From: an uncultured Gemmatimonadales bacterium
GTDB taxonomy: Bacteria; Gemmatimonadota; Gemmatimonadetes; Longimicrobiales; RSA9
Direction: 5' to 3'
DNA length: 64,000 bases
Assembly: GCA_963708135.1 (NCBI GenBank)
Contig: OY970192.1
Coordinates: 3,968,001 to 4,032,000 of the forward strand
The notes under the pieces: generated by a model
Told to the model about the DNA's origin: nothing
The model's database searches: none
Seen by the model: the letters and a program-made list of their open reading frames with translations, nothing else
Made by a program: the position numbers and the translations under genes
Shown here: positions 3,471 to 59,118 of the stretch, piece by piece
Position numbering within the stretch: the stretch's first letter is position 1
How the letters are laid out: every line of letters begins with the position of its first letter

Positions 3471-3477
3471 GCTAAGG

Positions 3478-3768
3478 CTAGAACACCTTGCCGCCCACGT
3501 CCTCGGGCTCGTACGGCAGCAGCGTCATGTAGTACTGCACGTCCAGATCGAGCCGCGATGTGCGCAGCTGGTCCGTCGACGCGTGCACCAGGTTCTCCAG
3601 CCCGTGGGGGTGCACCGAGATCTTCACGGTGCCGTCGCCGCCCCGCAGCATGATGGAGTGGCGGTCCTCCGCCACCTTCTCGAGCGGGAGCCGGCCCGTG
3701 AGCACCGTCTCCGCCTTGCGCAGCGCCTCCGCGATCCCGGCGGCGGTCCTCCGTTCGTAGCTCGCCAT
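3478..3768 (-). CDS. Hypothetical protein (96 aa)
   Basis: MASYERRT... preceded by GAGGA RBS. Protein-like composition, directly downstream of the DsbA-family gene. Confidence 0.65.
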   Translation of the reverse strand: MASYERRTAAGIAEALRKAETVLTGRLPLEKVAEDRHSIMLRGGDGTVKISVHPHGLENLVHASTDQLRTSRLDLDVQYYMTLLPYEPEDVGGKVF

Positions 3769-43699: not shown

Positions 43700-43727
43700 A
43701 AAGTAACACTTGAGGTGCGCACGTCAA
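43700..43727 (-). promoter_or_regulatory. Candidate sigma70 promoter for the surface lipoprotein gene
   Basis: TTGACG-16 bp-TACTTT with TGn extension on the minus strand. Confidence 0.45.
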
Positions 43728-43868
43728 GCCTCTTGTTTTCGGAACGGTCTCGCACCATGCCCATGGCTCCCCTATTTTCGCCGCCGAGCACCCGGCTCCG
43801 GCCGCACCACCGCCGCTGCGGCCGCGGCCGCCAGTAGCGTCCCTGCACCCCCGGACCTGGAGGCGAAG

Positions 43869-45929
43869 TTGCCTTTTCCCCGCTCGATTCCGAACGCGCT
43901 CCTCCTCGGCCTGCTTCCCCTCGCCTGCGCCCACTCCGGACGCGTCCCGGCCAAGCCCCCACCTGCAGTGTCGCCCGCCGTTTCTCCATCCTCACCCTCA
44001 CCCTCAACTGCCTTCGAAGTCTTCACGACACCGAAGCCCTTCGAGCGCCCACGCCCCTATCCGGTGTTCGAGACGCCCGGTTTCCGGCGCGCCGTCGAGC
44101 ACGGCACGCGCACGCGGACAGGGCGGCCCGGGCCTCGCTACTGGACGCAGCGGGCGGAATATCGGCTGGAGGCGACATTCGACCCTTCGCACGCGCGCGT
44201 GACGGGCGCGGGCACCGTGCGCTACCACAACCGCTCGCCCGACACGCTCCGTGTGGTGGCCGTCGAGCTCTATCAGAACGCGAACGCGCCGGGAGCCATG
44301 CGGGTCCGCTTTCAGCCGGTCACCGGCGGCATCCACCTGACGCGCGTATCCGCCGGCGGTCGGGTCCTGCGGGAAGCGCCGCGTGGCGCCGGACCGGGCT
44401 ACCAGGTGGTGGGCACGATCGCGTGGGTCACGCTGCCGCAGCCCGTCGTCCCCGGCGGCACGGCCGAGCTGGCGTTCGACTGGAGCTTCGTCATCCCGCC
44501 GAAGGAGAATTCGCGGATGGGGCAGGATGGCGTGGTCTACTTCGTGGGCTACTGGTATCCGCAGATCGCGGTCTACGACGACGTGAACGGCTGGCAGGCC
44601 GACCAGTTCATGACCAACGCCGAGTTCTACATGGACTACGCGGACTACGACGTCACCCTGCACGTCCCGCAGGGCTGGCTCGTCTCCGCCACCGGCGTGC
44701 TGCAGGATCCGGCGGCGGTGCTCGCGCCGCGCACCCGTGCCCGCCTGGCGGCGGCCCGCGTGGGCGCCGTGACCGCGGTGGTGGCCGCGGACGATCGCGC
44801 GCCGGGGCGCTCGACGGCCACGTCGCCCGACGGGATCCTGAGCTGGCACTTCGCGGCGACGAACGTGCGCGACTTCGCCTGGGCCAGCTCGGACCGCTAC
44901 CTCTGGGACGCCACCCGTGTGGTGGTCGGCGATGCGGACGGCGACGCGCGTCCCGATACCACGGTGATCAACGCCTTCTACCGCCCCAAGGGTCCACCGT
45001 ACACGGACTGGGCGCGCTACGCGGCCGCGTCCATCGACTTCCTGTCGCGCTATCTCTGGCCCTACCCGTGGCCCCACATGGATGTGGTGGACGGCACCGT
45101 GGGCGGGATGGAGTACCCGATGCTCGTCAACATCACGGGTGCCCGCGACAGCGTCTCGCTCTACGGCGTGACGCTCCACGAGATCGGCCACATGTGGTTC
45201 CCGATGATGGTCGGCAGCGACGAGAAGCGGCACTCCTGGCAGGACGAGGGCGTGAACACGTACGTGGACCAGCAGGGCGAGAAGGAGTTCTTCCACGGCC
45301 ACGTCGATGCGGAAGGGCAGGCGCGCCGGGCCTACACCGACTTCGCCCGCCGCGGCAGCGGCGGCGAGTGGATCGGCGGCGAGGTCGAGCTCATGCGCCA
45401 CGGCGACCTCTACCCGCCGCTCTCCCGTGCCTTCTCCATGGCGAGCTACACCAAGATGTCCGTGATCCTCCAGATGCTGCGCGGCCTCCTGGGCGATGAC
45501 CTCGTGCACCGGGCGTTGCGCGAATACGGCCAGCGCTGGCTGTACAGGCACCCGGACGCCTACGACTTCTTCAACACTTTCAATGACGTCTCGGGGCGGG
45601 ACCTCGGCTGGTTCTGGCGCACCTGGTTCTTCGAGACCTGGTCGCTCGACCAGGCGGTGGCCGGTGTCTCGGCCGTGGGCGACTCCGCCACCATCGCGAT
45701 CGAGGACCGCGGCCTCGCCCCCATGCCCGTCGAGCTCGCCGTGACCCGCGCGGACGGCTCGGTCCAGCGGCTCGAGCTGCCGGTCAACGTCTGGCTCGCC
45801 GGCACTCGCCACGCCTCGGTCCGCCTCCTGGCCCGCCCGGAGATCGTGCGGGTGGAGATCGACCCCGATTCGCTCTTCGCCGACATCGACCGCACGAACC
45901 AGGTCTGGACCGCACCGGGCGGCGCTTGA
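43869..45929 (+). CDS. M1 family metallopeptidase, lipoprotein
   Basis: TTG start after GGAGG, lipobox PLAC, GGMEYP, HEIGHMWFP..DEG, Y.K motifs. Confidence 0.88.
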   Translation: MPFPRSIPNALLLGLLPLACAHSGRVPAKPPPAVSPAVSPSSPSPSTAFEVFTTPKPFERPRPYPVFETPGFRRAVEHGTRTRTGRPGPRYWTQRAEYRLEATFDPSHARVTGAGTVRYHNRSPDTLRVVAVELYQNANAPGAMRVRFQPVTGGIHLTRVSAGGRVLREAPRGAGPGYQVVGTIAWVTLPQPVVPGGTAELAFDWSFVIPPKENSRMGQDGVVYFVGYWYPQIAVYDDVNGWQADQFMTNAEFYMDYADYDVTLHVPQGWLVSATGVLQDPAAVLAPRTRARLAAARVGAVTAVVAADDRAPGRSTATSPDGILSWHFAATNVRDFAWASSDRYLWDATRVVVGDADGDARPDTTVINAFYRPKGPPYTDWARYAAASIDFLSRYLWPYPWPHMDVVDGTVGGMEYPMLVNITGARDSVSLYGVTLHEIGHMWFPMMVGSDEKRHSWQDEGVNTYVDQQGEKEFFHGHVDAEGQARRAYTDFARRGSGGEWIGGEVELMRHGDLYPPLSRAFSMASYTKMSVILQMLRGLLGDDLVHRALREYGQRWLYRHPDAYDFFNTFNDVSGRDLGWFWRTWFFETWSLDQAVAGVSAVGDSATIAIEDRGLAPMPVELAVTRADGSVQRLELPVNVWLAGTRHASVRLLARPEIVRVEIDPDSLFADIDRTNQVWTAPGGA

Positions 45930-45968: not shown

Positions 45969-46643
45969 TCAGTGCAGCACATCGACGACCAGGCGGGCCG
46001 GGGACCGCAGCGTGAGAACGCGGTAGCGGCTCGGTCGCGCCAAGCCGAGCACCCAGCTCACGTCGGCCTCGAAGTCGCAAGTCAGCACGAGAGCCTCGAG
46101 GTTGGGCAGCCCCGGGCTCTGCCGTCGGGCCTGGATCGTCGGACGGCCTGCATCGTCGTGCGCCTGCGCCGGGGCGAGCCGCACCTCGAGCCACGCATCG
46201 CCCGCAAGCGGAACCGGCTCGCCCGAGCCGCACGCGCGCACCGGACGGTCAACGTACTCAATGTGGTAGCCCGGCACGCGCTCGGCGAAGCGGAAGACCA
46301 CCCGGTCGTAGCCTTCGTGGCGCCCCGTCTCGACCGCCTCGAGCAGCACCGGCATCCCGCTGCCACTTCGCTCCGACACGCCCGCCGTCCCCGAGAACGG
46401 CGGCGCGGCGGATTGACCTGCTCGGTTCGTGTCCGTCGCGGCACCGGCTGCCGCTGTATCCGTGCGCGCGGTATCCGTGCGCCTGGGAGCCGGCGCGACG
46501 GTATCGGCGGGATCGACGGGCGCGCCACGGTCGGCACGTCCCCCGCACGCCGCTGCCACGATCACGCTGACGGCAGCCAGGGCAACCTGCCGGGCGCCGG
46601 CCTGGAGGGACGACGGGTGGAGCGGGGCAGCACGGTGGGGCAC
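45969..46643 (-). CDS. Lipoprotein with AMIN-like domain
   Basis: Lipobox AAAC, Thr/Ala linker, GRHEGYDRVVFRF..PGY..EYV, DFEA, P.RLVVDV. Start uncertain. Confidence 0.72.
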   Translation of the reverse strand: MPHRAAPLHPSSLQAGARQVALAAVSVIVAAACGGRADRGAPVDPADTVAPAPRRTDTARTDTAAAGAATDTNRAGQSAAPPFSGTAGVSERSGSGMPVLLEAVETGRHEGYDRVVFRFAERVPGYHIEYVDRPVRACGSGEPVPLAGDAWLEVRLAPAQAHDDAGRPTIQARRQSPGLPNLEALVLTCDFEADVSWVLGLARPSRYRVLTLRSPARLVVDVLH

Positions 46644-46707
46644 GGGAGCTCCGGAGCTCGGGAGAAACGGGGCGGAATCGCGCGGGTAGGCGCGGCGGAT
46701 GCGTCGC

Positions 46708-47316
46708 CTACTCGAGCAGCCGCATCTGCGCCCGCGTGACCGCGGGCACGACGTGGCAGGCGCGGCAGCGCGCCTCGTAACTCTCGAGGCCGCCCACCTG
46801 GATTGTGGGGCCCTCGGCCGGTGCCGGCTTGCCATCCACCAGCCGCTGGTTGCGGGTGGCCGGGCTGCCGCACACCACGCAGATCGCCGTCAGCTTGTCC
46901 ACCTGCTCCGCGATCGCCAGCAGCTCCGCCATTGGCCCGAAGGGATCGCCCCGGAAGTCCATGTCCGTGCCCGCGACCACCACCCGCACGCCGCGATTGG
47001 CGAGCGTGTTGACCACGCGCACGATTCCAGCATCGAGGAACTGCGCCTCATCGATCGCGATCACCTCCGCCCGCGGGTCCAGGTGCTCCGTCACCTCCAT
47101 CGAGGATTGCACCGGGATCGCCTCGATCCTGCCGCCGTCGTGCGAGCTCACCACCTGGAGTCCGCCGTACCGGTCGTCCAGCTGCGACTTGAAGACCTGC
47201 ACCTTCTTGCGCGCGATCGTCGCGCGTCGGACCCGCCGGATCAGCTCCTCGGACTTGCCGCTGAACATGACCCCGCTGATCACCTCGATCCAGCCGTGTC
47301 GGGGGGAGTAGTCCAT
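46708..47316 (-). CDS. tdk: Thymidine kinase
   Basis: [27 protein letters not shown], zinc CVVC..CRACH. Confidence 0.96.
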
Positions 47317-47584
47317 GGCGACGAGTTTACCCCCGACCCGTTCGCCTTGTCCAGATCGCCCGATCCCCCGCCCGCCACAGGCCAGCGCTCCCCCGCCGAT
47401 TCAGGCGCAAATGCACGGCTCCACTTGACATACGCTGCCGGTAAAGGCAAACTACTTCTTACCCCTCTGGCACATCCATATCGGGAGTGGGCGCGTGCGG
47501 TCGCGCCTGGCCGCATGGACCACCACCTGCGTCGCCGCGGACGCAATCGCGGCTTCGCGCCGCCCAAGAAGGGGACCAGGAGAG

Positions 47585-48499
47585 ATGAGCCAATCACGGG
47601 AACAGCCCACCGATCCGGGCGAAACCCGCGCGGCGCGCGCGGAGGCACTTCTGCGCTCTCTCACCGGCATCCTCGATGCCCGCGTCGAGACCGACGCCGG
47701 CGGCGGGATCCGGCGCATCGCCCTCCTGGCGCAGCACGGCCTGGCCGCTCGCGACGCCGTGCGCAACGCGCAGTCCGCGCTCCTCGCCTCGCTCGGCCTC
47801 GCCATCGACTCCGATCGCGTCGCCATCGACTTCGGTGAGCCCGCCACTTCCCCGCCCTGGCGCGCCCACGCCGCGCACGTGCCCGCGCCCCGAGATCCGG
47901 CAGCCGCCGCAGGCTTCGTCACGTCAGTGCCGACCGGCCGCAACGGTAGCGCGGCGCCGCCGCAGAACGGGAAGGCTCACGCCCACGGCAACGGCGGCGC
48001 GCCGACACCAGAAACCACCCTGGGCAGCCGCGGCCGGGGCGCCTCCGTCGGCGCACCCCGCGCGCCCGGCCCAACGCATCGGACGGCGGAGCTCGCCGAG
48101 AGCGTCGATGCGGCGGAGACCGAAGTCGCGCCGGCCCATACCCGGCCCGCGCCCGGGCTCGTCCGTGTCGACATCGAGCCCGCCCCCCCGGACCGCGTGC
48201 GCGTCCGCGTCGTCCTCGCCTTCGAGGACCGCATCAACGTCGGTGAGGCCGATGGCATCGACACGCCCACGGCCCGCCTCGAGCTCGCCGCCCGCGCCCT
48301 GCTGCGCGCCGTCCCCGCGCGCCACGACCGCGACCTCGACGGCGTCCGTACCCTCGACATCGCCGGCCGCACCTACATCGTCGTCGCCGTCCGCTCGATC
48401 CGCGGCCGCACCGTTCAATACCACGCCGACGCCATTGCCGCCGACGGCCCGCTCGAGCACGCCGCGGCCCTGGCAACCCTCGGCGCCGTAATCCGATAG
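47585..48499 (+). CDS. Two-domain hypothetical protein with low-complexity linker
   Basis: AGGAG RBS and TTGACA at 47425. N-domain LTGILDARV...VRNAQSAL; C-domain VRVVL..VGEA.G...AAALATLGAV loosely like the LeuA regulatory fold. Confidence 0.7.
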   Translation: MSQSREQPTDPGETRAARAEALLRSLTGILDARVETDAGGGIRRIALLAQHGLAARDAVRNAQSALLASLGLAIDSDRVAIDFGEPATSPPWRAHAAHVPAPRDPAAAAGFVTSVPTGRNGSAAPPQNGKAHAHGNGGAPTPETTLGSRGRGASVGAPRAPGPTHRTAELAESVDAAETEVAPAHTRPAPGLVRVDIEPAPPDRVRVRVVLAFEDRINVGEADGIDTPTARLELAARALLRAVPARHDRDLDGVRTLDIAGRTYIVVAVRSIRGRTVQYHADAIAADGPLEHAAALATLGAVIR

Positions 48500-48645
48500 C
48501 ACGTCCCGATACACCAACAAGGACCTGCAACCCGAACAAGGAGCCCCCGTCCCGCACAGCGGAGCCCAGCATAGCGAAGTAGCGGAGTGACCGCGACCTA
48601 TGTCCTAGCCGAGGTCGACGTGATCTCCGAAGGGAGGTGAGCTGG

Positions 48646-48723
48646 GTGTTCCTTCAGGCGCTATTTGAGCTCATCGGCGCACTAGTTGCGCTTCTTGGCG
48701 GCGGTATCACCATCGCAAACTAG
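48646..48723 (+). CDS. 25-aa hydrophobic peptide (absent from ORF track)
   Basis: Strong GGGAGGTGA RBS at 48632-48640, GTG start, MFLQALFELIGALVALLGGGITIAN*, 26 nt before the HD-GYP start. Confidence 0.68.
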   Translation: MFLQALFELIGALVALLGGGITIAN

Positions 48724-48749
48724 CGTCGGGCGGGGGCTCCTCCTTCTGT

Positions 48750-50072
48750 ATGAACCGAAAAGGTCAATTCTTCTTCTGGGCGGTTTTGGTGGCAGCAGCA
48801 GCTTTGCTGCTGCCCCTGCCGTGGCGTGCGTTTTGGCTCTCGACTCCGCGCGAGATCCTCGGTCTCGCCACATTTGTAGGGCTTGCTGTGCTGTCGGAAG
48901 CCATGGCCATCGGCTTCACGTTCGGTGCGTCAAAGTCCAACGCATCCATTTCGTTCGTTCCGTTGCTGGCAGCGGTCGTGGTATTCCCGCCAGTGTTTTC
49001 GGTATCGGCTGCGGCCGTTACGGTATTTGTGGCAGAGGCCTTCTTGCGGCGCCGCCCTGCGTGGCTAACAGCATTCAACACCGGCCAGTACATATTAGGG
49101 TATGGAACCGCGGCGCTCATCTACTCTTGGCTTGCGCCCGGAGGCGGCGGAGACATCAGTCTGATAGCGTTCTTACCCGCCGCGCTGGCGTTTTTCTCGG
49201 CCAACCTTTTTATTGTTTCGGGATTTGTCTCCGTTCGGCGCGGTGAGAGTCTCATTGAAACCGCCCGCCAATTCGCAGGGCCGTCCGGCGCGAATCTGTT
49301 TTATGACTTTCTTGCCACACCAACAGCGCTTTTTGCGGCCTATTTGTACACCAAGTTCTATGTGGCCGGATTATTCCTGTTCATCTTGCCATTTCTGTTA
49401 ATCCGCTATTCGTTTATCTCGAAGATTCGACTGGAACAGGCCAACCGGGACCTAATTCGGGTCCTGATTAAGGCCATCGAGACCAGGGACCCCTATACAT
49501 CTGGGCATTCGGTTCGGGTTTCGACGTTGGCGAAGATGATAGCGGAGGACCTTCATCTCTCGAAACGAAGGATTTACGATATCGAGACAGCGGCGCTACT
49601 ACACGACATCGGTAAAATTGAGGCGCTCTACGCGGACGTGATAAGTAAGCCGTATTCGCTATCTGATACTGAACGGGCATTAATCCGGACCCATGCGACC
49701 AAGGGCGCTGACCTGCTGCACGGCCTCAGCGCCTTTGGCCCTGAGATCATCAAGGCGGTCCGTCATCATCACGAGCGATTTGACGGACAGGGTTACCCCG
49801 ACGGCATCTCGGGCGCCGCGATACCGCTTGCCGCAAGAATTATCATGTTATGCGATTCCATAGACGCAATGCTGTCGGATCGCCCCTACCGATCCGCTCT
49901 AACCGTTAACGCTACTTACAACGAGATAGTGCGATGTTCTGGCACTCAGTTTGACCCCGACATAGTCGAGGTGATCTTACGCAGAGATACGCTCAGGCGT
50001 GCGGCAGGCTTGGCTGAGGCGGAACCAACTAGACAGGCGTCCCTTACGGCAGCCGCCGCTGAGCCAGTCTAG
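48750..50072 (+). CDS. Membrane-anchored HD-GYP cyclic-dinucleotide phosphodiesterase
   Basis: Multi-TM N-terminal domain; ETRDPYTSGHS, LHDIGK, HHHERFDGQGYP, D..DAM.SDRPYR. Confidence 0.92.
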   Translation: MNRKGQFFFWAVLVAAAALLLPLPWRAFWLSTPREILGLATFVGLAVLSEAMAIGFTFGASKSNASISFVPLLAAVVVFPPVFSVSAAAVTVFVAEAFLRRRPAWLTAFNTGQYILGYGTAALIYSWLAPGGGGDISLIAFLPAALAFFSANLFIVSGFVSVRRGESLIETARQFAGPSGANLFYDFLATPTALFAAYLYTKFYVAGLFLFILPFLLIRYSFISKIRLEQANRDLIRVLIKAIETRDPYTSGHSVRVSTLAKMIAEDLHLSKRRIYDIETAALLHDIGKIEALYADVISKPYSLSDTERALIRTHATKGADLLHGLSAFGPEIIKAVRHHHERFDGQGYPDGISGAAIPLAARIIMLCDSIDAMLSDRPYRSALTVNATYNEIVRCSGTQFDPDIVEVILRRDTLRRAAGLAEAEPTRQASLTAAAAEPV

Positions 50073-50346
50073 AGGCGGCGACAGCGAGCTCTACATCTGG
50101 GAGGATAGCGGAAATTGCGGAATGGACATCAGCGACTTTGAAGCATACGCCGCCCTTAAGGGCGACGAAACCCTCCGCGTGCGGCCTGATCGCACCGCCT
50201 TGCTTGTTGTCGACATGCAGCGGTATTTCGTGGAACCTGAGTTCCCGTTCGGCCAAGTCTTAGCCAAGTTTCAGCCTGACGCAGCGGCTGCGTATTTCGA
50301 CCGTGTCAAAACTACCGTAGTTCCAAATGTCCAGGAATTGCTCAAG

Positions 50347-52319
50347 CCCATCTTGAACAGTTTGGAAGGGGTACGCGTCCGAAAGCCGTTGTGCCGCAAC
50401 AATCCGACCGCCGCCGCCGCCGATCTGTAGTGCCACAGAGTGCACCCCTAGACTCGCCCGTAAAGCAGGCTAACAACATTGCATCAGCGCCGGTCCACGC
50501 GTAGCTTGCCGTAGTGCTCCAACCGGCGAGGCGCCCGTGTTCCTGCGCAGCAAGCGAAGCGGCCGATACGAGTACCTGCAACTCGTCCACAACACGCGCG
50601 TGGACGGCCACATCCGCCAGCAGGTGCTGGCCACGCTGGGGCGCCTGGACCGGCTGCGGGGCAGCGGGCAACTGGACGGGCTGATCGCTTCGCTCAGCCG
50701 CTTCTCGGAGGTGAGCGCGGTGCTGGGCCCCGAGGGGCGCACGGCCCGCGAGGGGGCGGAGACAATCCGGATCGGCCCCGCACTCCTCTTCGAGCGGCTG
50801 TGGGAGGAGAGCACCATCGGGCCGGTGCTGCGGCGCGCGCTGGGGGCTCGGCGCTTCGAGTTCGACCTGGAGCGGGCGGTCTTCCTCACGGTGCTGCACC
50901 GGCTTTTCGCCTCCGGGAGTGATCGTGCGGCGGAGTACTGGCGGCAGGACTACCGCATCGGGGGTGTCGAGGACCTGGGGCTGCACCACCTCTACCGGGC
51001 CATGGCGTGGCTGGGCGAGGTGCTGCCGGCGAGTGAGCAGGTGGACGCAGCGCTGTTCGCGCCGCGCACGCGGAAGGACGCGCTCGAGGAGGCGCTGTTT
51101 GCAGCGCGGCGCGACCTCTTCAGCAGCCTGGACCTGGTCTTCTTCGACACCACTTCGCTGTACTTCGAGGGCGCGGGCGGGGAGCGGCTGGGCCGCTTCG
51201 GGAAAAGCAAGGACCACCGCCCCGACCGGCACCAGATGGTCGTGGGCGCGATCCTGGACACGGAGGGGCGCCCCGTCGCGAGCGAGCTCTGGCCGGGCAA
51301 CACGGCGGATGTGCGGACACTGCTCCCGGTCGTGGACCGGCTGCGCAGCCGGTTTGCGCTGGAGGAGCTCTGTGTCGTGGCCGACCGGGGCATGATCAGC
51401 CGCGCGACCATGGCGGCGCTCGAAGGCGAGGACACGCGCTGCCACTACATCCTGGGCGCGCGCATGCGGAAGGTGAAGGAGGTGCGCGAGGTGGTGCTCG
51501 CCGACCCGGCGCCGTTCGAGGCGGTGCGCGGGCCGCGCACGCGAAGCGAGGACCCGGCACCGCTCCAGGTGAAGGAGGTCCGCGTCGGTCCGCGGCGCTA
51601 CATCGTCTGCTTCAACCCCGAGCAGGCGAAGAAGGAGCGCGCGGACCGGGAGGCGATCCTCACCGCGCTGGAGGCGCAGCTCCGCCAGGGCGAGGGGAGC
51701 CTGGTCGGCAACAAGGGCTGCCGGAAGTACCTGAAGACGCCCGGTCAGCACTTCGAGATCGACGATGCCCGGGTGGAGGCGGAGGCGCGCTACGACGGGC
51801 TCTGGGTCCTCCAGACCGACCTGGAGCTGCCCCCGGCCGAGGTCGCGCTCCGCTACAAGGAGCTCTGGCAGGTCGAGGCGCTCTTCCGCAGCATGAAGTC
51901 CGTCCTCGACACCCGGCCGATCTACCACCAGAGCGATGCGGCCATCTGCGGCCACGTCTTCGCGAGCTTCCTGGCGCTCGTGCTCCTGGACGAGCTGCGC
52001 CGGCGCATGGACCGCCGCGGCTTCGGCTACGAGTGGGCCCGGCTGCGGGCGGACTTGGACGCACTGGAGGAGATCCGGTTGGAGGCCGTCGGCCGCACCG
52101 TGCTCGTGCGCAGCCTCCCGCGCGGCGCGGCGGGCGCGGCGCTCCAGGCCGCCGGTGTCGCTCTCGGCCCCGCCGTGCGCTTCGTCGAGCTGGAGCCCGA
52201 CGCAGGCGAGTAGCCTTCCTACCCGCACCTCCCCCCAAGACCGTAGTGCCAAGGCGCCGTGCCACGCCCGTAACTCTGCATCACAGCCACACTTGCAAAT
52301 CGCTACTGTTCAAGATGGG
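50347..52319 (+). mobile_element. IS1634-family insertion sequence (1973 bp)
   Basis: 15-bp perfect TIRs CCCATCTTGAACAGT / ACTGTTCAAGATGGG, flanked by 5-bp direct repeat TCAAG (50342-50346 and 52320-52324). Confidence 0.93.
50537..52213 (+). CDS. IS1634-family DDE transposase
   Basis: YLQLVH..R..G..RQ.V.A.LGR N-terminus, FFDTTS.YFEG, GKSKDHRPD, VADRG, Y..LWQVE..FR..K, RPIYH. Confidence 0.93.
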   Translation: MFLRSKRSGRYEYLQLVHNTRVDGHIRQQVLATLGRLDRLRGSGQLDGLIASLSRFSEVSAVLGPEGRTAREGAETIRIGPALLFERLWEESTIGPVLRRALGARRFEFDLERAVFLTVLHRLFASGSDRAAEYWRQDYRIGGVEDLGLHHLYRAMAWLGEVLPASEQVDAALFAPRTRKDALEEALFAARRDLFSSLDLVFFDTTSLYFEGAGGERLGRFGKSKDHRPDRHQMVVGAILDTEGRPVASELWPGNTADVRTLLPVVDRLRSRFALEELCVVADRGMISRATMAALEGEDTRCHYILGARMRKVKEVREVVLADPAPFEAVRGPRTRSEDPAPLQVKEVRVGPRRYIVCFNPEQAKKERADREAILTALEAQLRQGEGSLVGNKGCRKYLKTPGQHFEIDDARVEAEARYDGLWVLQTDLELPPAEVALRYKELWQVEALFRSMKSVLDTRPIYHQSDAAICGHVFASFLALVLLDELRRRMDRRGFGYEWARLRADLDALEEIRLEAVGRTVLVRSLPRGAAGAALQAAGVALGPAVRFVELEPDAGE

Positions 52320-52876
52320 TCAAGTCTTGTCGCAAACTGGGAATCCCGACCTACTTCACGGCTCTCGGCTCCCTCCGCAGTGACGGGCGGGATCTGCCCG
52401 GCTAGGCTCGTCAACTCAACAAATTGAGCCAGAAGACGGTTGGTGCGCCAATGTACCCACCGCGGGATGACGACAGTTGGCAGATTCACGCGACTCTCGC
52501 TCCCCGGCAAGGTGAACCCGTGCTGGCAAAGACAACCAGCGGACCGCTGAACTCTGCTCGGCTGGATCAAACGCTCCACATGCTTGGCGTAGACACTGTC
52601 CTCGTTGTCGGCGTGACCACGGACGTTTGCGTTACTCAGGCAGCCCGCGAGTTGGCCAATGGCGGCTTCAGCGTCATCATTCTTGCAGACAGCTGTGCCG
52701 CTCCAGGCGACGATCGACACCGATCGGCGCTGGAGACGTTCGCCATGGTATTTGGACGCGTTTGTTCAACCCGGTCGGTTTTAGAGGCGCTTGAAGAGAA
52801 CTAACGCGCCGCCTCTAGGCCCCTTTGGGCAGCTTCTTGTCCCATCCTGCTATTGCAATCGGCGGGAGCTTTTCTT

Positions 52877-53677
52877 CTATTTGGACCGTCCGCTGCCCGC
52901 GTCCCTTTTCGTGGAGCACGCCTGCTCCCGGCGAAGCCAACTCTCTACAATCCACTCCCAGCCCAAGCACGATTTCACGTCGGTCGGGCGGCATCCGACC
53001 AGCCTTTTCATCTGATTGCTCATCGTAAAGGCATCTGGGTAGCCGAACATTGACGCAACGCTCCCCGCACTCCGCTGGGTGTGCTGGAGGTGGATGCTGA
53101 CGTGGAGCAGCCGGGCGAACTGGAGCCAATGCGACGGCACGGGCAGGTGCTGAACTTCGAAATGCCGTCCAAGAGTTCTCCGGGACATATAGAGCTTTCT
53201 CGTCAGCTTTGAGAGGCTGTTGACCTGTGGCGCTAGCCGGAAGATCAGGCGGATTTCTTCCAAGGCGTTTGTATCGACCACGGCGCCTCTCGTGTGGAGG
53301 TATTCGGTTACGCTCGCGGACAGGTCAAGAGGTGGCGTGGCAAGTAGGCGCGCAAGCGTTCGCGGATTGGCCAGTTCCCCCTCCGGTAAGACGGCACGGG
53401 GGTGGGCCGCCGGCAATAGGTCGAGATACTGTCGGAGAGCAACCACCGCCGCTGGCCGGGGTAGGATGATAAACAACGGCACGCCGGCTGGACGACGTTC
53501 CAGCCATCGAGATTCGGCGCAGATGTTCTCGGTCGCACCCAGCCACCAAGCCAGAGCATGCCCACGGGGCGGCTCCGTGTCCGGTCTCCAGGAAAAGTCG
53601 ATAGGAGTGTGAACCTCGTAGGCAGGGGTGAGGAGCGTGAGGCGGTGCTTCCCCTGGGGAATCTCAGGCGTGGACAT
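52877..53677 (-). CDS. AraC-type HTH transcriptional regulator
   Basis: LYMSRRTLGRHF...P.HWLQFARL, VA..FGYPDAFTMSNQMKRLVG.RP double-HTH pattern. Confidence 0.8.
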   Translation of the reverse strand: MSTPEIPQGKHRLTLLTPAYEVHTPIDFSWRPDTEPPRGHALAWWLGATENICAESRWLERRPAGVPLFIILPRPAAVVALRQYLDLLPAAHPRAVLPEGELANPRTLARLLATPPLDLSASVTEYLHTRGAVVDTNALEEIRLIFRLAPQVNSLSKLTRKLYMSRRTLGRHFEVQHLPVPSHWLQFARLLHVSIHLQHTQRSAGSVASMFGYPDAFTMSNQMKRLVGCRPTDVKSCLGWEWIVESWLRREQACSTKRDAGSGRSK

Positions 53678-53829
53678 GGTCGGCTCCAGGCAAGGGGTGA
53701 TCGACGCCCCTAAATTGGCCGACCTCTGTCAGCCCGGTATCATCCGAGGATGCGTAAGCTGAGATAAGGGCAGCAGTTAGGGCCGCGACAACCGCCAGCG
53801 CGAAGCCGCGAGCTGAGGAGGCCTTCAGG

Positions 53830-56800
53830 ATGTCAGCACTTCATCTCATCACTCTAGGACGCTGCGCTCTCCTTTCCGGCGGGGCCGTGGTCCTAAGATC
53901 CCGGCCTAAGGAATTGGCGCTTCTCGCGTACCTTGCCCTATCGTCGGAGCGGCCGGTTACGCGCGTAGAATTGGTGCGCCTCTTCTGGAACGACAGAAAC
54001 GAACGCCGAAGCAGGCACGCACTGAGTCAGGCGCTGCACTCCTTGAAACGTACCTTGCCGAACCTCACGATCGGTTCAGGCGGTGACGAGCTATGGATCT
54101 CGCCAGGTAAGCTTCAGGTGGATGTTAGCCTTTTCAGAACTGCAATTGTGCGCAACGAGCTTGAGGAGGCTGCACGGCACTTTGCCGGGCACTTCATGAA
54201 TGGGTTACGCATCAGCGCTACGCGCGACTTCGAGGAGTGGCAGGAGCAAACGCGGGCACAACTATCACATGAAGCATTGGTCGTGTTTCGAAGCCTTGCT
54301 CGTTCCTACTATGCGGCAGGAGACGTACACCAAGCAGGCCACTTTGCGGCTCAGGCGCTCCGGCTCCAGCCAATGGACGAGCAAATGATCCGGATCGGGC
54401 GGGAGGCGGCTAGTGTTGACCTTCGATCCGCTAATAGGGACACCGTGGCGCAGTTTCCAATTCCAGATTTGAGATCGGAACTGGCGCCGGAGTTGGCGTG
54501 CCGACATCCGACTCTGCCTTTTGTGGGACGGTCACACGAGCTAGCGGCTGCCCAAGAGATTTTTCACGCTGCAGCAGTTAGAGGACTTAGAGTCCTGAGC
54601 GTCACCGGCGAGGCTGGTGTCGGCAAGACGCGATTTTGTGAGCAGGTGCTCCGGTGGGCCGCGATTCGGGGTGCCCGCGTGTTACATGGGCGTTGCTCGC
54701 ACGGCGCGTCACAACTCCCGTACGGTGCAATTGCCAGTGCCCTCGCGGACGGCTTCGACTCAGGGGACCTGAGCGTCCTGTCGACTCGCTTGCGGAGGTC
54801 ACTCTGTCGAATCGTCCCGGAATTGTGCCACCCGCGCGGACAGCAGCTCGCCCATGGGGCTTCGCCTCGTGCGCGACAAGAGATTTGCGAGTCTTCGGCA
54901 CGATTGCTCGCGATCAGTTCCGGCGACCGCCCTACGGCGTTGTTCCTGGATGATTTTCAATGGAGCGACGACTCGACGATACGGCTACTAAGCTACCTAT
55001 TGCAGCGCTTGCCGAACGCGACTCTCTTTGTCCTGCTCGCGTCGCGCCCCAAGCTCGCTACGGAGGGCGCCGTCGCCGCGTTCTTGAGGCACCTCCCCGC
55101 CGATCGCTGCGATTCCATCTCTCTGGACGAATTTGACGAACCCACCGTACGCGAGCTTGTATCGAAGGCTTACGCGGGCCACGCCCATGGCGATCTGCAT
55201 GAGCTTGGCACGGAACTGTTCAGACTCGTGGGGGGCCACGCCTTCTTACTAGGCGAACTGATTCTGGCGGCTCAACGAGACGGACGTGGACCCAATGGCA
55301 ACCCGTCCCGCCCGCAGGACCTGATTGGCCCGCGCACACCGTCATCGATCGAGAGGTTTCTCTCGGAGAGAGTCTGCCAACTGACTGGAGAAGAGACCAA
55401 CGTGCTCGAGGCCACCGCCGTACTCGGCGACCAGGCTACGCTAAACATAATTTCGCGGCTCACAGGAGCGAACGAAGACCGCGCGACTCGCTCGCTCGAC
55501 TCCCTCGAGCGCGCACGGCTAATCCGGATTACTCGAACACGAATAGCGTTTGCACATGATTTGGTTCGGGAGGCGGTATACGCACGTATGGGCGCGGCAC
55601 GTCGGCTTCTCCTTCACAAGCGAGCTGCGGTTGATTTGACTTCCAACGGCAATGTGCCCGTCGGCACGATCGCGCAGCACTGGGATCTGGCCGGGGAGCG
55701 GCCTTTTGCGTTCCAGTGCGCACTTCGGGCCGCGGAGGAGGCGCAAAAGGTCGGCGGAACTGCTGAAGAGGAGCACTTCCTCCAAATGGCTATTCAGAAC
55801 GCCATCTCCCCGAGCAACTTATCACATGCGCGGTGGCGGCTCGCTGAGCACTATTCCACCCTGAATAGGTACGAACATGCGCGCGCCCTGTTGGGGGAGA
55901 TGGCGGCGGCCGAAGATGGGACCGATCCGGACAATGCTTTCTTGGTTGAGGCCATGCTATTCGGCATCGCGGTACGCACTGGAGACATGGATACGCGAAC
56001 ACTGGATCAGAAGTATAAGTCATTATCGGATCCGTATTTGGCCTCTCCAGACAGCGACGGTGCTCTTGAACTCTTGTGGCATCGCGTCTTAGCCTCTCAT
56101 TACCTCAATGACATTAGGTCCTCGCTTGACGAACTGGATCGGTTGGTGGATTGGGGCAGGAATGCTTCAGATCCGAGCCGTGCAGTACGGGCACTGGTGT
56201 TGGCCTCCCACGTCGTTACAGCAAATTTCGGCCTCGACGCGGCGGAACCTCTGATCGCGCAGAGTGTCGCGAGAGCCGTGGAAGCTGGCACCGCCTCGGC
56301 AATGGCATCGGCATTGGCGTGTCGAGCAGCGAACCGTCTCCAGCGCGGGAGGCTAACCGAGGCACTCGAAGATTTTTCTAAGGCTCAGGATCTTGAACAG
56401 AGGGCGGGGCTTTCCTCGTTCTGGATGGGTGCTGCCAACAATTATGGAGTCACGTTGCTCGAGGCCGGTGAGCTGGCCGCTGCAGTTGCGATCTTCGAAG
56501 GGGCGGTCAGCGTGGCGCGTGCGAGCGGACGCATAGATTGGCCCTTCCCAATGCTCAATCTCGCGATGGCGCATTATGAGCGACGCTGCTTTGCGGATGT
56601 CCGCAGGACGTGTCTCGATCTTGTCGGGGATCCGGCGCTTGCGGCGTGTCGACCGAACGTGGCAATGGCGTTGGCGTTACTCGGCCTGGTCGATCTGGAG
56701 GAGGAGAGATTCGCGCGGGCCAGACACTGGAACCTGGCATGTCGTGAATTCACTCCGGAGGACCCGGTGCAGCTGGTGCTCGATATGTCCTACCCCGAGG

Positions 56801-57114
56801 CGCTCAACGCGCGGATTCTCGCGCTCGATGGGCGGCGGGGGGAGGCGATTGCGCGGTTGCGGGCGGTGCTGGCGGCGTATGAGAATCGGGACGTGTTCTG
56901 CCGGAACAGGTTGCGACTGGAGCTGGCGCGACAGCTGGTGGCGGTGGACCGTGATGAGGCGGAGGCGCAGGCGCTCGCGGTGAAGGCGTTCGGGGAGGAG
57001 TCGGGGGCCAGGCCGCTGGTGCGGAAGGCGAGGAATCTGCTGCAGGCAATGGGGCGGCCGGTGCGCGCGGGGGGGCGTGGGGCGCACCTTGCCGCCTCCA
57101 CGGCGCAGAGATAG
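53830..57114 (+). CDS. SARP-like (wHTH-BTAD) regulator with AAA ATPase and TPR repeats
   Basis: LITLG, LALLAYL, LSQAL..L, FEEW BTAD features; PFVGR..EL, GEAGVGKT, LDDFQWSD, FAHDLVRE; helical repeats. Confidence 0.88.
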   Translation: MSALHLITLGRCALLSGGAVVLRSRPKELALLAYLALSSERPVTRVELVRLFWNDRNERRSRHALSQALHSLKRTLPNLTIGSGGDELWISPGKLQVDVSLFRTAIVRNELEEAARHFAGHFMNGLRISATRDFEEWQEQTRAQLSHEALVVFRSLARSYYAAGDVHQAGHFAAQALRLQPMDEQMIRIGREAASVDLRSANRDTVAQFPIPDLRSELAPELACRHPTLPFVGRSHELAAAQEIFHAAAVRGLRVLSVTGEAGVGKTRFCEQVLRWAAIRGARVLHGRCSHGASQLPYGAIASALADGFDSGDLSVLSTRLRRSLCRIVPELCHPRGQQLAHGASPRARQEICESSARLLAISSGDRPTALFLDDFQWSDDSTIRLLSYLLQRLPNATLFVLLASRPKLATEGAVAAFLRHLPADRCDSISLDEFDEPTVRELVSKAYAGHAHGDLHELGTELFRLVGGHAFLLGELILAAQRDGRGPNGNPSRPQDLIGPRTPSSIERFLSERVCQLTGEETNVLEATAVLGDQATLNIISRLTGANEDRATRSLDSLERARLIRITRTRIAFAHDLVREAVYARMGAARRLLLHKRAAVDLTSNGNVPVGTIAQHWDLAGERPFAFQCALRAAEEAQKVGGTAEEEHFLQMAIQNAISPSNLSHARWRLAEHYSTLNRYEHARALLGEMAAAEDGTDPDNAFLVEAMLFGIAVRTGDMDTRTLDQKYKSLSDPYLASPDSDGALELLWHRVLASHYLNDIRSSLDELDRLVDWGRNASDPSRAVRALVLASHVVTANFGLDAAEPLIAQSVARAVEAGTASAMASALACRAANRLQRGRLTEALEDFSKAQDLEQRAGLSSFWMGAANNYGVTLLEAGELAAAVAIFEGAVSVARASGRIDWPFPMLNLAMAHYERRCFADVRRTCLDLVGDPALAACRPNVAMALALLGLVDLEEERFARARHWNLACREFTPEDPVQLVLDMSYPEALNARILALDGRRGEAIARLRAVLAAYENRDVFCRNRLRLELARQLVAVDRDEAEAQALAVKAFGEESGARPLVRKARNLLQAMGRPVRAGGRGAHLAASTAQR

Positions 57115-57176
57115 GTTGCGGAGTCATCCTCGAAGGCATCCGCACTCCGACCGGCCCTCTTCGGCCTCCCGGTTCT

Positions 57177-57899
57177 ATGCTGGTCCGCAGCCGCATGACG
57201 CGCGACATCATCACGGTGGAGCCGGCCGCCTCGCTGGCGCGGGCACTGCTGCTCATGCACGAGCATCGGATCCGTCACCTTCCGGTGGTGGCGGGCGAGG
57301 ATCTGGTGGGGCTGCTGAGCGACCGGGATATCCGGCTGGCGGCGCCGCCGCCGGGGAGCGTGGTGGAGGGGGAGCGGCAGCGCTTCCTGGAGTCGCGGCG
57401 GGCGGACGACGTCATGGTTCGCGAGGTGGTCACGACGACGGCGGACACGCCGGTCGAGGAGGCGGCGCGTGTGATGGCGCAGCACCGGATCGGGGCGCTG
57501 CCGGTGGTCTCGGGCGAGCGGCTGGTGGGGATGCTCACCACGGCGGATCTGCTGCGGGCGTTCGTGGAGCTCTTCGGGGTGAACCGGCCGTCCAGCCGGA
57601 TCGAGGTGCGGATGCCGAATCGGCCCGGGGAGCTGGCGCGGGTGGTGCGGCTGATCGGGGTGGACGCGCGGCTGAACATCTCGGGGATCGTGCTGGCGGG
57701 AAGCCAGGGATCGCACGCGACGGCCGTGCTCCGGGTGCAGACGGTGGACCCGCGCGGGGTGATCGAGTCGCTCCGCCGCCTGGGATACCAGGTCGGCTGG
57801 CCGGCGCTGGACATGGCTCCGCCATCGCTGGACCCGCACGAGGGTCCGGGGAGCGTGGCGGGTCCGAACTCGCGGCACGCGACGGATCCGGCGCGCTGA
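57177..57899 (+). CDS. acuB: AcuB-like CBS-pair + ACT domain protein
   Basis: MTRDIITV, IRHLPVV..LVGLLSDRD, IGALPVV, RIEVRMPNRPGELA ACT start. Adjacent to acuC. Confidence 0.85.
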   Translation: MLVRSRMTRDIITVEPAASLARALLLMHEHRIRHLPVVAGEDLVGLLSDRDIRLAAPPPGSVVEGERQRFLESRRADDVMVREVVTTTADTPVEEAARVMAQHRIGALPVVSGERLVGMLTTADLLRAFVELFGVNRPSSRIEVRMPNRPGELARVVRLIGVDARLNISGIVLAGSQGSHATAVLRVQTVDPRGVIESLRRLGYQVGWPALDMAPPSLDPHEGPGSVAGPNSRHATDPAR

Positions 57900-57939
57900 C
57901 CTCGCGGCGCGCGGAGACGCCCCTTCCCCGGACGGCCGC

Positions 57940-59118
57940 TTGAGCCCGACCGCTCTCATCTGGGACGAAGTCCTCGCCACCTACCGCTTCCGGCCGGAGC
58001 ACCCAATGAACCCGCGGCGGCTGCACTGGACGGTGCAGCTGATCGGCGCGCTGGGCCTGGCCGGTGACGCGGCGACGCCCCTCATCGTCCCGCGACCGGC
58101 GACGGAGGAGGAGCTGCTCCTGGCGCACGACCGCGCGTACGTCGATGCGGTGCGCGCGCTCTCGGAGCCGGGCGCGGATCCCATGGATGGCCTCCCATGG
58201 GGGCTCGGCACGGAGGACACGCCGGTCGTGGAGGGGATGCACGCGGCCGCATCGCGCGTGGTGGGAGCCACGCTCGTGGCGGCGGAGGAGGTCATCACGG
58301 GACGCGCCCGGCGGGCGTTCAATCCCGCCGGCGGGCTGCACCACGCTCGCCGCGCCGAAGGCGCAGGCTTCTGCGTGTACAACGACCTGGCGGTGGCGAT
58401 CCGCTGGCTCGAGCGGCAACACGGCGCGCGCGTGATGTACATCGATGTCGACGCACACCACGGCGACGGAGTGCAGCAGATCTTCTACGACGACCCCGAG
58501 GTCCTCACGCTCTCGCTGCACGAGAGCGGCACCTACCTCTTTCCCGGGACCGGATTCGTGGACGAGCTCGGCGAGGGGGACGGATACGGCTACTCGGTGA
58601 ACGTTCCGCTCGACGTGCACACGGAGGACGGCTCGTTCATGGAGGCCTTCGAGGCGCTCGTTCCGCGGCTGGCGGGAGCCTTCCACCCCGACATCATCGT
58701 GCTCCAGACCGGCTGCGACGGGCACGTCCTCGATCCGCTGACGCACCTTCGGCTGACCACGGGCGTGTACGAGCGCATCGCGAGGCTGGTCGGCGAGGTG
58801 GCGGACGCGGAATGCGAGGGGCGCCTCGTCGCCACCGGCGGCGGCGGGTACGCCGCGTACACGGTCGTGCCGCGCGCGTGGACGCTGGTGTGGGGAGCCG
58901 TGGCGGGTCTCGAGGTGCCGGACCGCGCTCCGGACGAATGGCTCCGGGCGGTCCGCCTGGAGGCGGGGGAGGAGGTACCCTGGGCGCTGCGGGACCCGCC
59001 GGACGCCTTTGCGCCCTCTCCCCGGCGCGCGGAAGTCGCGGCTGCGAACCGGCGGACCGTCGAGGCGGTCCGGCGGCGCGTGCTTCCGCTGCTCACGGGC
59101 TGGGGCCTTGCCTTCTAG
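57940..59118 (+). CDS. acuC: AcuC / class I histone deacetylase-like lysine deacetylase
   Basis: HPMNPRR, GGLHHA..GFCVYND, YIDVDAHHGDG, FPGTG, GCDGH..DPL, GGGGY. Confidence 0.92.
   Translation: MSPTALIWDEVLATYRFRPEHPMNPRRLHWTVQLIGALGLAGDAATPLIVPRPATEEELLLAHDRAYVDAVRALSEPGADPMDGLPWGLGTEDTPVVEGMHAAASRVVGATLVAAEEVITGRARRAFNPAGGLHHARRAEGAGFCVYNDLAVAIRWLERQHGARVMYIDVDAHHGDGVQQIFYDDPEVLTLSLHESGTYLFPGTGFVDELGEGDGYGYSVNVPLDVHTEDGSFMEAFEALVPRLAGAFHPDIIVLQTGCDGHVLDPLTHLRLTTGVYERIARLVGEVADAECEGRLVATGGGGYAAYTVVPRAWTLVWGAVAGLEVPDRAPDEWLRAVRLEAGEEVPWALRDPPDAFAPSPRRAEVAAANRRTVEAVRRRVLPLLTGWGLAF

Follow-up and report, generated by a model that had tools for sequence, protein, structure and literature searches.

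A conserved small open reading frame within a structured leader RNA precedes the gene of a predicted MASE9-HD-GYP phosphodiesterase in Gemmatimonadota and Clostridia

MgrB and SafA are small membrane proteins that modulate a sensor, PhoQ. In the SecM-SecA and MifM-YidC2 pairs, and in the long-range pairing of phage MS2, translation of an upstream open reading frame (ORF) unmasks the ribosome-binding site of the next gene. Leaders with repeated motifs are bound by the oligomeric proteins TRAP (GAG/UAG repeats), HutP (UAG repeats) and CsrA (GGA), and SHP and Phr are short hydrophobic peptide pheromones of Firmicutes whose RRNPP receptors are cytoplasmic. Here we describe a locus that resembles each of these in part. 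It lies in a stretch of 64,000 nucleotides (nt) from an uncultured Gemmatimonadales bacterium (contig OY970192.1), hereafter the window, and comprises three genes that share the same orientation, the last of which is predicted to encode a cyclic di-GMP (c-di-GMP) phosphodiesterase of the MASE9-HD-GYP type:

47585..48499, + strand: gene of the upstream two-domain protein, 304 amino acids (ORF list)
48646..48723, + strand: small ORF, 25 codons plus stop, GTG start (ORF list, sequence and coding signature)
48750..50072, + strand: gene of the predicted MASE9-HD-GYP c-di-GMP phosphodiesterase, 440 amino acids (Pfam HD_5 and MASE9 comparisons)

The region is best explained as a conserved four-part c-di-GMP signalling operon made of the two-domain protein, which would be cytoplasmic, a leader RNA, a 25-residue membrane peptide and the MASE9-HD-GYP enzyme. 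Like MgrB and SafA, the window peptide would be a single helix of fewer than 50 amino acids, encoded next to or co-regulated with a membrane sensor whose membrane part it is proposed to bind. However, the output here is a c-di-GMP phosphodiesterase and not a kinase, and the peptide gene is fixed directly upstream, within a folded leader, across phyla. As in SecM-SecA, MifM-YidC2 and MS2, translation of the upstream ORF would open a helix over the next initiation region. Unlike them, the window shows no evidence of an arrest motif, and its helix is long-range (~190 nt), enclosing the whole ORF together with the ORF's own regulatory leader. The leader recalls those of TRAP, HutP and CsrA, and riboswitches, in carrying two to four AGCGGA-type motifs in single strands and a hairpin loop beside a helix that masks a Shine-Dalgarno sequence (SD). 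It differs from them in that it matches no Rfam family (no match at an expectation value (E) ≤1 in positions 46000-58000 of the window, and none at the leaders of seven related loci) and in that the AGCGGA motif is confined to this operon, with a single occurrence in each genome, in the genomes searched. Finally, the ORFs share with SHP and Phr a length of ~22-25 codons and a C-terminal end that varies, to which the Clostridia versions add an N-terminus that is basic and hydrophobic, whereas their neighbour is a membrane enzyme rather than an RRNPP receptor and the Gemmatimonadota versions have no basic N-terminus.

The closest described enzymes are T. maritima TM1467 and S. venezuelae HdgA, in which, according to the available portions of the published accounts, an integral-membrane MASE9 domain is followed by HD-GYP with intact HD and GYP motifs, as in the window. 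MASE9 was defined in a preprint by Galperin and Chou (10.1101/2021.11.05.467447), whose accessible text gives the domain eight predicted transmembrane segments, conserved aromatic and Asn/Ser positions, a ligand proposed by the authors to bind within the membrane, and HdgA, poorly expressed, as the only studied member. HdgA is membrane-bound, is among the least abundant proteins and has no developmental phenotype in the accessible part of the report on it (PMC6205966). Neither of these two sources, in the portions available, mentions the small ORF; the preprint's account of MASE9-HD-GYP proteins contains no small ORF, leader RNA or partner protein, and the words 'small protein' appear 0 times in it. 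More generally, the small ORF, the leader and the partner protein were not found described in full-text literature searches, although supplements, including Figure S5 of the preprint, may show the genomic context. No characterised system of the same form turned up there either, in agreement with what a previous reading of the locus from its sequence alone (the sequence-only reading) had supposed.

That the product of 48750-50072 is a MASE9-HD-GYP c-di-GMP phosphodiesterase is deduced from its two parts:

48750..50072, + strand: amino acids 41-219, MASE9-like part; amino acids 237-405, HD_5 domain (Pfam and alignments)

The HD_5 match (PF13487) scores 109.9 bits against a cut-off of 27.2, and HD (PF01966) 64 bits against a cut-off of 22. 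The HD dyad and the HHExxDGxGYP motif are intact (LLHDIGK and HHERFDGQGYP), and the catalytic-motif columns (LLHDIGK and RHHHERFDGQGYP) are invariant in seven orthologues. For the N-terminal half, the window protein differs from the Pfam members of MASE9 (PF20972), matching the family with E 0.0052 and 17.2 bits, below the gathering cut-off of 24.3. All nine orthologues match it at E≤10, with a best value of 5.3e-14, and the Vallitalea homologue exceeds the cut-off with 26.2 bits. Ten positions of the membrane half (S66, F69, F79, F109, N110, F149, N152, Y185, Y200 and S221) are invariant in nine sequences, and the conserved aromatic (Phe/Tyr) and Asn/Ser positions agree with the published description of MASE9. 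The hydrophobic half, in which the sequence-only reading had seen a multi-transmembrane sensor-like region, probably corresponds to the published MASE9 domain; that reading had not recognized it as an already described domain, an assignment made here by sequence comparison.

The small ORF is a real, conserved gene that accompanies the enzyme gene in several phyla. At this position all 39 Gemmatimonadota loci inspected have a hydrophobic ORF of 20-26 codons led by an SD; 38 were found by script and one by eye, the latter with AAAGGGGGA as its SD. The ORF ends 22-111 nt before the extrapolated enzyme start, or 22-53 nt outside one clade. At one extra locus beyond the 39, L018, the enzyme gene is broken and the ORF ambiguous. 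A profile of the MASE9 half located the enzyme gene in 223 of 401 sampled Gemmatimonadota genomes, mostly in single copy, and MASE9 was present in 25 of 250 sampled genomes of the class that holds Vallitalea. Among 15 named cross-phylum loci, the ORF was found in 10 (eight by script, two by eye), from Bacillota, Actinomycetota and an unclassified metagenome-assembled genome (MAG). It was also present, with 25-29 codons, in all 26 loci of a second set, of which 24 were new Clostridia-class loci, one came from a Bacillota MAG and one from an Actinomycetota MAG; the carriers include two Actinomycetota MAGs. The proposal that homologous gaps would hold hydrophobic ORFs led by a ribosome-binding site is therefore borne out at the same position throughout the 39 Gemmatimonadota loci, and the tie between the tiny ORF and the membrane phosphodiesterase, genuine and deeply conserved, goes far beyond chance. 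Two of the 39 loci, L013 (genome G016) and L014 (G019), belong to genomes that carry an 'unpublished' flag; they supply 2 of 9 rows of alignment A1, 2 of 35 of A2, 2 of 34 of A4 and 2 of 7 of A5, and dropping both alters no conclusion. Genomes G015, G026, G097 and G187 are included in tallies only.

Coding signatures were compared by codon position. Column entropies are 1.53, 1.03 and 1.67 at positions 1, 2 and 3 in 35 Gemmatimonadota ORFs, and 1.19, 0.71 and 1.50 in 19 Clostridia ORFs, position 2 being the least variable in both. The frequency of T at position 2 is 0.48 and 0.45 in the two ORF sets, compared to 0.22-0.28 at positions 1 and 3. In Clostridia, the ratio of non-synonymous to synonymous polymorphism (pN/pS) is 0.55 for the reading frame and 0.74 and 1.37 for the two other frames. 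Nucleotides within the ORF are poorly conserved, while its frame, length, SD spacing and hydrophobic periodicity are kept.

In the window, the frame read from the GTG at 48646 gives the 25-residue peptide MFLQALFELIGALVALLGGGITIAN; the same frame can also be read as 28 residues (48637..48723, + strand) from an upstream GTG located within the SD:

48632-48640, + strand: Shine-Dalgarno sequence of the peptide, GGGAGGTGA (RNA GGGAGGUGA), 5 nt before the GTG at 48646 (sequence)

The stop codon (48721-48723) is followed, 26 nt further, by the enzyme ATG at 48750. Every descriptive detail that had been given of this arrangement, a tiny ORF with a strong ribosome-binding site and a 26-nt gap before the HD-GYP gene, is confirmed from the sequence. 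The peptide consists of a hydrophobic helix, a GGG and an ITIAN tail. It carries no Lys or Arg and has a Glu in the helix, and so lacks the basic N-terminus typical of export. Across the family the peptides have 20-29 residues and a mean hydropathy of 0.8-1.9, which fits a single membrane-spanning product of fewer than 50 amino acids. Those of Gemmatimonadota (35 distinct peptides in alignment A2, the window's included) have a helix with one Asp or Glu, a near-invariant Gly and a short tail, frequently with a terminal Trp, and no basic N-terminus. In Clostridia the pattern is M-K-K, ~15 hydrophobic residues, L-A-G-G-A and a tail of 4-5 residues with Trp; with its basic N-terminus and hydrophobic core this shape resembles that of a signal peptide plus a tail. 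Tails vary among relatives and the helix is conserved. Pfam and NCBIfam hold no family for these peptides, apart from one sub-threshold LPAM_1 match (E 0.0085). None of seven peptide sequences is present in a collection of 15 billion proteins, from which it appears that gene callers miss these genes.

Alignment of the intergenic regions reveals conserved blocks and a structured leader around the ORF, an observation that is new with respect to the sequence-only reading. Its outer helix, P1, encloses both the leader and the peptide ORF:

48534..48555, + strand: 5′ strand of P1, core AGGAGCCCCCGUCC, pairing with 48723-48746 (minimum free energy (MFE) fold of 48531-48755, RNAduplex, and RNAalifold on alignment A4)
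48723..48746, + strand: 3′ strand of P1, core GGGCGGGGGCUCCU, overlapping the last base of the stop codon and ending 4 nt before the HD-GYP ATG

In the window P1 consists of a 14-base-pair (bp) core plus extensions, and joins a region ~100 nt before the ORF to the region right after its stop codon, with the two arms ~190 nt apart. The whole element folds with -96.9 kcal/mol (z -2.73; 3 of 200 shuffles as good). Because bulges made an anchor-based register unfit in about one third of the sequences, P1 was scored by duplex folding and shuffles. The duplex is present in 34 of 34 Gemmatimonadota leaders, with 11-23 bp and a mean of -34.1 kcal/mol, compared to -23.8 kcal/mol with foreign 3′ strands; the mean z is -4.3, and in 25 of the 34 the native duplex is unmatched by 100 dinucleotide shuffles. 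RNAalifold recovers the P1 core from alignment A4; of the 11 pairs that it predicts overall, 5 show changes on both sides. The Clostridia duplexes average -28.2 kcal/mol against -15.0 kcal/mol for shuffled sequences, and at most 5 of 100 shuffles are as good in 25 of 26 leaders. The P1 sequences themselves are entirely different between phyla. The 3′ strand lies in the stretch between stop codon and ATG; it covers the downstream initiation region and begins 0-26 nt after the ORF stop across leaders, within reach of a terminating ribosome.

In the outer part of P1, an SD-like AAGGAG (48538-48543) on the 5′ strand pairs with CUCCUCCUU (48737-48745) on the 3′ strand, a sequence that we take to resemble the 3′ end of 16S rRNA. 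An AAGGAG preceding a C-run recurs in many relatives.

Inside P1, further helices cover the peptide SD or its start region. The elements involved in the window are:

48558-64, 48573-79 and 48581-87, + strand: three tandem AGCGRAG motifs (sequence; aligned, and partly invariant in 34 leaders)
48592..48620, + strand: hairpin P2 (folds), whose loop CUAGCCGA is a variant of the UAGCGGA loop motif of the family
48623..48640, + strand: anti-SD AUCUCC (48623-28), then the peptide SD (48632-40) (sequence)

The triple-motif pattern occurs once in the window's own 5.45-Mb genome. Gemmatimonadota leaders have three tandem AGCGGA-type motifs and one in the hairpin loop, and those of Clostridia one before a further helix, P3, and one in the P2 loop. 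In P3, the stretch after AGCGGAG pairs with the 3′ part of the SD and the spacer; the pairing appears in four sequence classes in Clostridia, in 21 of 26 leaders as judged by eye. In the window, CUCC can pair alternatively with the SD or, in the MFE fold, with the GGAG of the third repeat. As another alternative CCCAGC (48565-70), complementary to GCUGGG (48641-46), can pair with GCUGGG(UG) over the start codon. The inner pairings (P2, P3 and the anti-SD) were counted formally. In alignment A6 (14 sequences) 94.4% of cells are paired. Shuffling lowers this to 85.2%, with 0 of 500 shuffles reaching the native value, and sliding to 32-53%; both sides change in 7 of 14 pairs, 5 of 7 in P2. In alignment A7 (26 Clostridia), for which the MAFFT alignment was one column out of register for one sequence class, the corresponding values are 73.4%, 64.7% (0 of 500 shuffles as high) and 38-54%, with both-side changes in 10 of 13 pairs. 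The energy of the P2 hairpin alone is weak, at most 5 of 100 shuffles being as good in 14 of 37 sequences, and the case for P2 therefore rests on the compensatory changes.

Of 150 genomes scanned with R1, a covariance model built on the Clostridia core, 18 have a site, and each of these has exactly one. Sixteen of the sites are the model's own seeds next to MASE9, and one is at the end of a contig. The last, in genome G494, was found through the RNA model only and has the complete arrangement of a two-domain protein, the RNA, a 27-amino-acid ORF, a MASE9-HD-GYP gene and a DUF5317-like gene. On 20 sources outside Clostridia, R1 gives 4 matches at E<0.05 (8e-4 to 0.046) and 9 at E≤1, and its matches in Gemmatimonadota leaders fall at the expected place.

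The upstream protein (47585-48499), which the sequence-only reading had noted as a co-oriented two-domain protein without an assigned function, has no Pfam or NCBIfam match, and its model indeed shows two domains and a linker. The AlphaFold model (pLDDT, the predicted local distance difference test, of 77 overall and >90 in both domains; 22-row alignment) has an α-β-β-α-β N-domain (amino acids 15-83), a disordered linker rich in Pro and Ala, and a C-domain (191-303) of two β-β-β-α units. The best Foldseek matches in the Protein Data Bank are to the allosteric domains that bind leucine or isoleucine in LeuA and in citramalate synthase (E 7e-4 to 1e-2). Weaker matches are to the double-stranded RNA-binding domain, ribosomal S5 and PUR repeats, and the N-domain is like the ring-building motifs of PrgK and EscJ. 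LeuA_dimer gives a sub-threshold match in 1 of 22 family members, and an ESM Atlas search returned only unnamed Bacillota clusters. The gene stands co-oriented upstream of HD-GYP in 31 of 39 Gemmatimonadota loci, which places it in a conserved neighbourhood, and in 27 of 27 loci of the Clostridia P1 analysis. The protein may act as an RNA binder, a ligand sensor or a partner of the enzyme. The family has several paralogues per genome. The second copy in the window's genome lies 40 nt before a soluble HATPase_c histidine-kinase-like gene and has no such leader:

Locus L056 (G000:C1:3463500-3468500): paralogue at 1470-2159 and HATPase_c protein at 2199-3623 (ORFs)

The position of this paralogue beside a histidine kinase suggests that the two-domain family pairs with different signalling outputs. 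In one Gemmatimonadota clade (L044, at ~400-1330; L045 and L050-L054) the two-domain gene and the leader are separated by a gene of ~210 amino acids whose product looks, by eye, like a helix-turn-helix with a receiver-like domain behind it.

Taken together, we give an even chance to the proposal that the peptide works as a small membrane partner for MASE9 and is produced along with the enzyme, by translational coupling under control of the leader. The peptide would be a small membrane subunit or an intramembrane ligand of the MASE9 sensor domain. The folded leader would hold both initiation regions closed, and its opening would be the regulated step: a factor bound to the AGCGGA-type motifs, possibly the upstream two-domain protein or a small ligand, would open the peptide SD or start region. 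A ribosome terminating on the ORF, 0-26 nt from the 3′ strand of P1, would then melt that strand and free the ribosome-binding region of the enzyme. Because of this melting the enzyme would be translated only when the peptide ORF is translated, and the coupling would lead to peptide and enzyme being made together, in low amounts, with the peptide sitting against MASE9 in the membrane. Complex prediction lends weak support to contact between the peptide and the MASE9 membrane domain, as the sequence-only reading had anticipated. The pair scored 0.52 (runs of 0.30, 0.52 and 0.65) compared to 0.01 for the best of three controls, and the runs agree in at least 87% of contacts with a partner pLDDT of at least 64. 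Among 157 solved complexes, 116 reach the mark used, as do 2 of 215 mismatches; at scores of 0.60 or less, only 18 of the 157 solved complexes passed, plus both mismatches. The published proposal of a ligand bound within the membrane, and the poor expression of HdgA, also speak for this reading.

Several observations weigh against this proposal. The complex score is weak and lies outside the calibration, which contains no chains of fewer than 30 residues. The ORF was not seen in 5 of the 15 named MASE9-like HD-GYP loci (three Chloroflexota, two Actinomycetota). Pooled pN/pS in Gemmatimonadota is only 0.72 in frame, compared to 0.84 and 1.39 out of frame, a contrast that is weak because the comparison is saturated. 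P3 is only moderate overall, at most 10 of 200 shuffles being as good in 17 of 37 sequences, and in the window it is unsupported (-8.7 kcal/mol against -8.5 kcal/mol shuffled; 80 of 200 shuffles as good). The MFE fold of the window leaves the SD largely unpaired, with only the start region paired, and the window leader is not found by R1 at E≤1. In Vallitalea the enzyme SD lies downstream of P1, so that masking by P1 is not universal. Finally, the kinase-side paralogue argues that the two-domain family works with signalling proteins rather than with RNA.

A more ambitious version, which we hold to be unlikely as a whole, makes the AGCGGA leader a new RNA switch that responds to the two-domain protein or to a small ligand and gates both a peptide co-receptor and the MASE9 enzyme, the variable Trp-bearing tail, displayed or released at the cell surface, being the input of MASE9. 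The two-domain protein is a candidate binder here because its C-domain resembles an amino-acid-binding allosteric domain. If true, this would be a self-contained circuit from peptide to c-di-GMP, extending from Clostridia to Gemmatimonadota. MASE9 is widespread, and the accessible parts of the literature on it report no identified signal and a single studied member without phenotype and with low expression. The three unannotated companions found here across at least three phyla, a 25-residue peptide, a leader absent from Rfam and an unnamed protein family, thus offer handles on MASE9, and the peptide gene may point to the signal input of these enzymes. The locus further contributes a small protein of deep conservation and a candidate for a new class of cis-regulatory RNA, both missed by gene callers.

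The best surviving alternative is that the ORF acts purely in cis: its translation would matter in itself, through opening of P1 or through stalling of the SecM, MifM or TnaC type, and the peptide would have no function. Its location inside P1, with the stop codon 0-26 nt before the 3′ strand, fits such a role, and its length, kept at 20-29 codons, is short enough for the ribosome tunnel at termination. However, three phyla preserve the membrane-helix character, the conserved Gly and the Trp tail although the nucleotides have turned over completely, the peptide cleared the controls of the complex prediction, if weakly, and to our knowledge the known arrest peptides are not membrane-helix-like. 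We consider a purely cis-acting ORF improbable.

A second alternative, less likely than a membrane partner, is a secreted or surface peptide signal, in which the helix would serve for export and a C-terminal tail of 4-7 residues would be released or displayed and then sensed by MASE9. The Clostridia peptides, with M-K-K, a hydrophobic stretch of ~15 residues, L-A-G-G-A and a Trp tail, do look like signal peptides with a small-residue motif before a variable tail, and the weak LPAM_1 match, below its cut-off, reflects this shape. That tails differ among relatives while the helix is conserved also fits. On the other hand, in the Gemmatimonadota peptides, including that of the window, the N-terminus is not basic and the helix contains Asp or Glu, and a Trp near the C-terminus would equally suit the interfacial anchor of an uncleaved helix. 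No gene for processing or export was a conserved neighbour in the loci read. Moreover, the tight placement before the receptor gene in one folded RNA suits a co-made subunit. On balance such a signal appears decidedly doubtful.

The composition of the region raised another possibility, namely that peptide and enzyme were recently acquired together as a foreign cassette. The GC content drops at ~48500 from 0.75-0.77 to 0.52-0.60, and a low-GC stretch with an IS1634-family transposase continues to ~56700. The enzyme gene has a GC of 0.56 (0.61-0.63 at third codon positions, GC3) compared to 0.76 (GC3 0.87) for the upstream gene, a difference that had been taken as the mark of a swapped cognate pair. 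This interpretation does not hold: a difference of this kind recurs in every one of the 13 relatives checked, with 0.49-0.62 for the HD-GYP gene and 0.64-0.77 upstream, so that low GC is a trait of the gene family and not the trace of a recent swap. The window shares its leader and peptide subtype with the family relatives, and synteny with the high-GC upstream gene is conserved. A foreign cassette is thus very unlikely. One possibility is that the low GC and GC3 of HD-GYP reflect selection for rare codons or low expression.

Least credible of all is an incidental ORF in a region that is only a structured RNA, riboswitch or small RNA: strong RNA structure signals do surround it, but frame, length, SD spacing and hydrophobic periodicity are kept though the nucleotides are poorly conserved, and the Clostridia ORFs have 0 stops in frame against 48 and 7 out of frame.

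The low-GC stretch (~48500-56700; 0.52-0.63 within a window of 0.70) holds, besides HD-GYP, a split isochorismatase gene, an AraC-type regulator (52877-53677, minus strand) and a 1094-amino-acid regulator (53830-57114). This regulator partly matches the TOMM kinase/cyclase fusion family of NCBIfam, though with 70.1 bits it stays far under the cut-off of 705.75. The IS1634-family transposase gene (50537-52213; 358.7 bits; GC 0.72) lies inside the isochorismatase-family gene, whose halves are at 50122-50430 and 52424-52804, with the Pfam Isochorismatase match on the C-terminal part; the gene directly downstream of HD-GYP is thus disrupted by the transposase. In Bacillota loci, the gene directly after MASE9-HD-GYP encodes a DUF5317 membrane protein (L130, 3057-3578, Pfam E 1e-29; L075, 3113-3688, 2.5e-30; L177, 1-441, by sequence likeness only), which is not downstream of HD-GYP in the window. 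Promoter and terminator scans between the genes gave nothing useful, and the window contains no tRNA genes. The upstream neighbours are high in GC and ordinary: a large ORF at 43710-45929, M1-peptidase-like by eye only, an AMIN-like domain protein (45969-46835, minus strand) and a thymidine kinase (46708-47316, minus strand).

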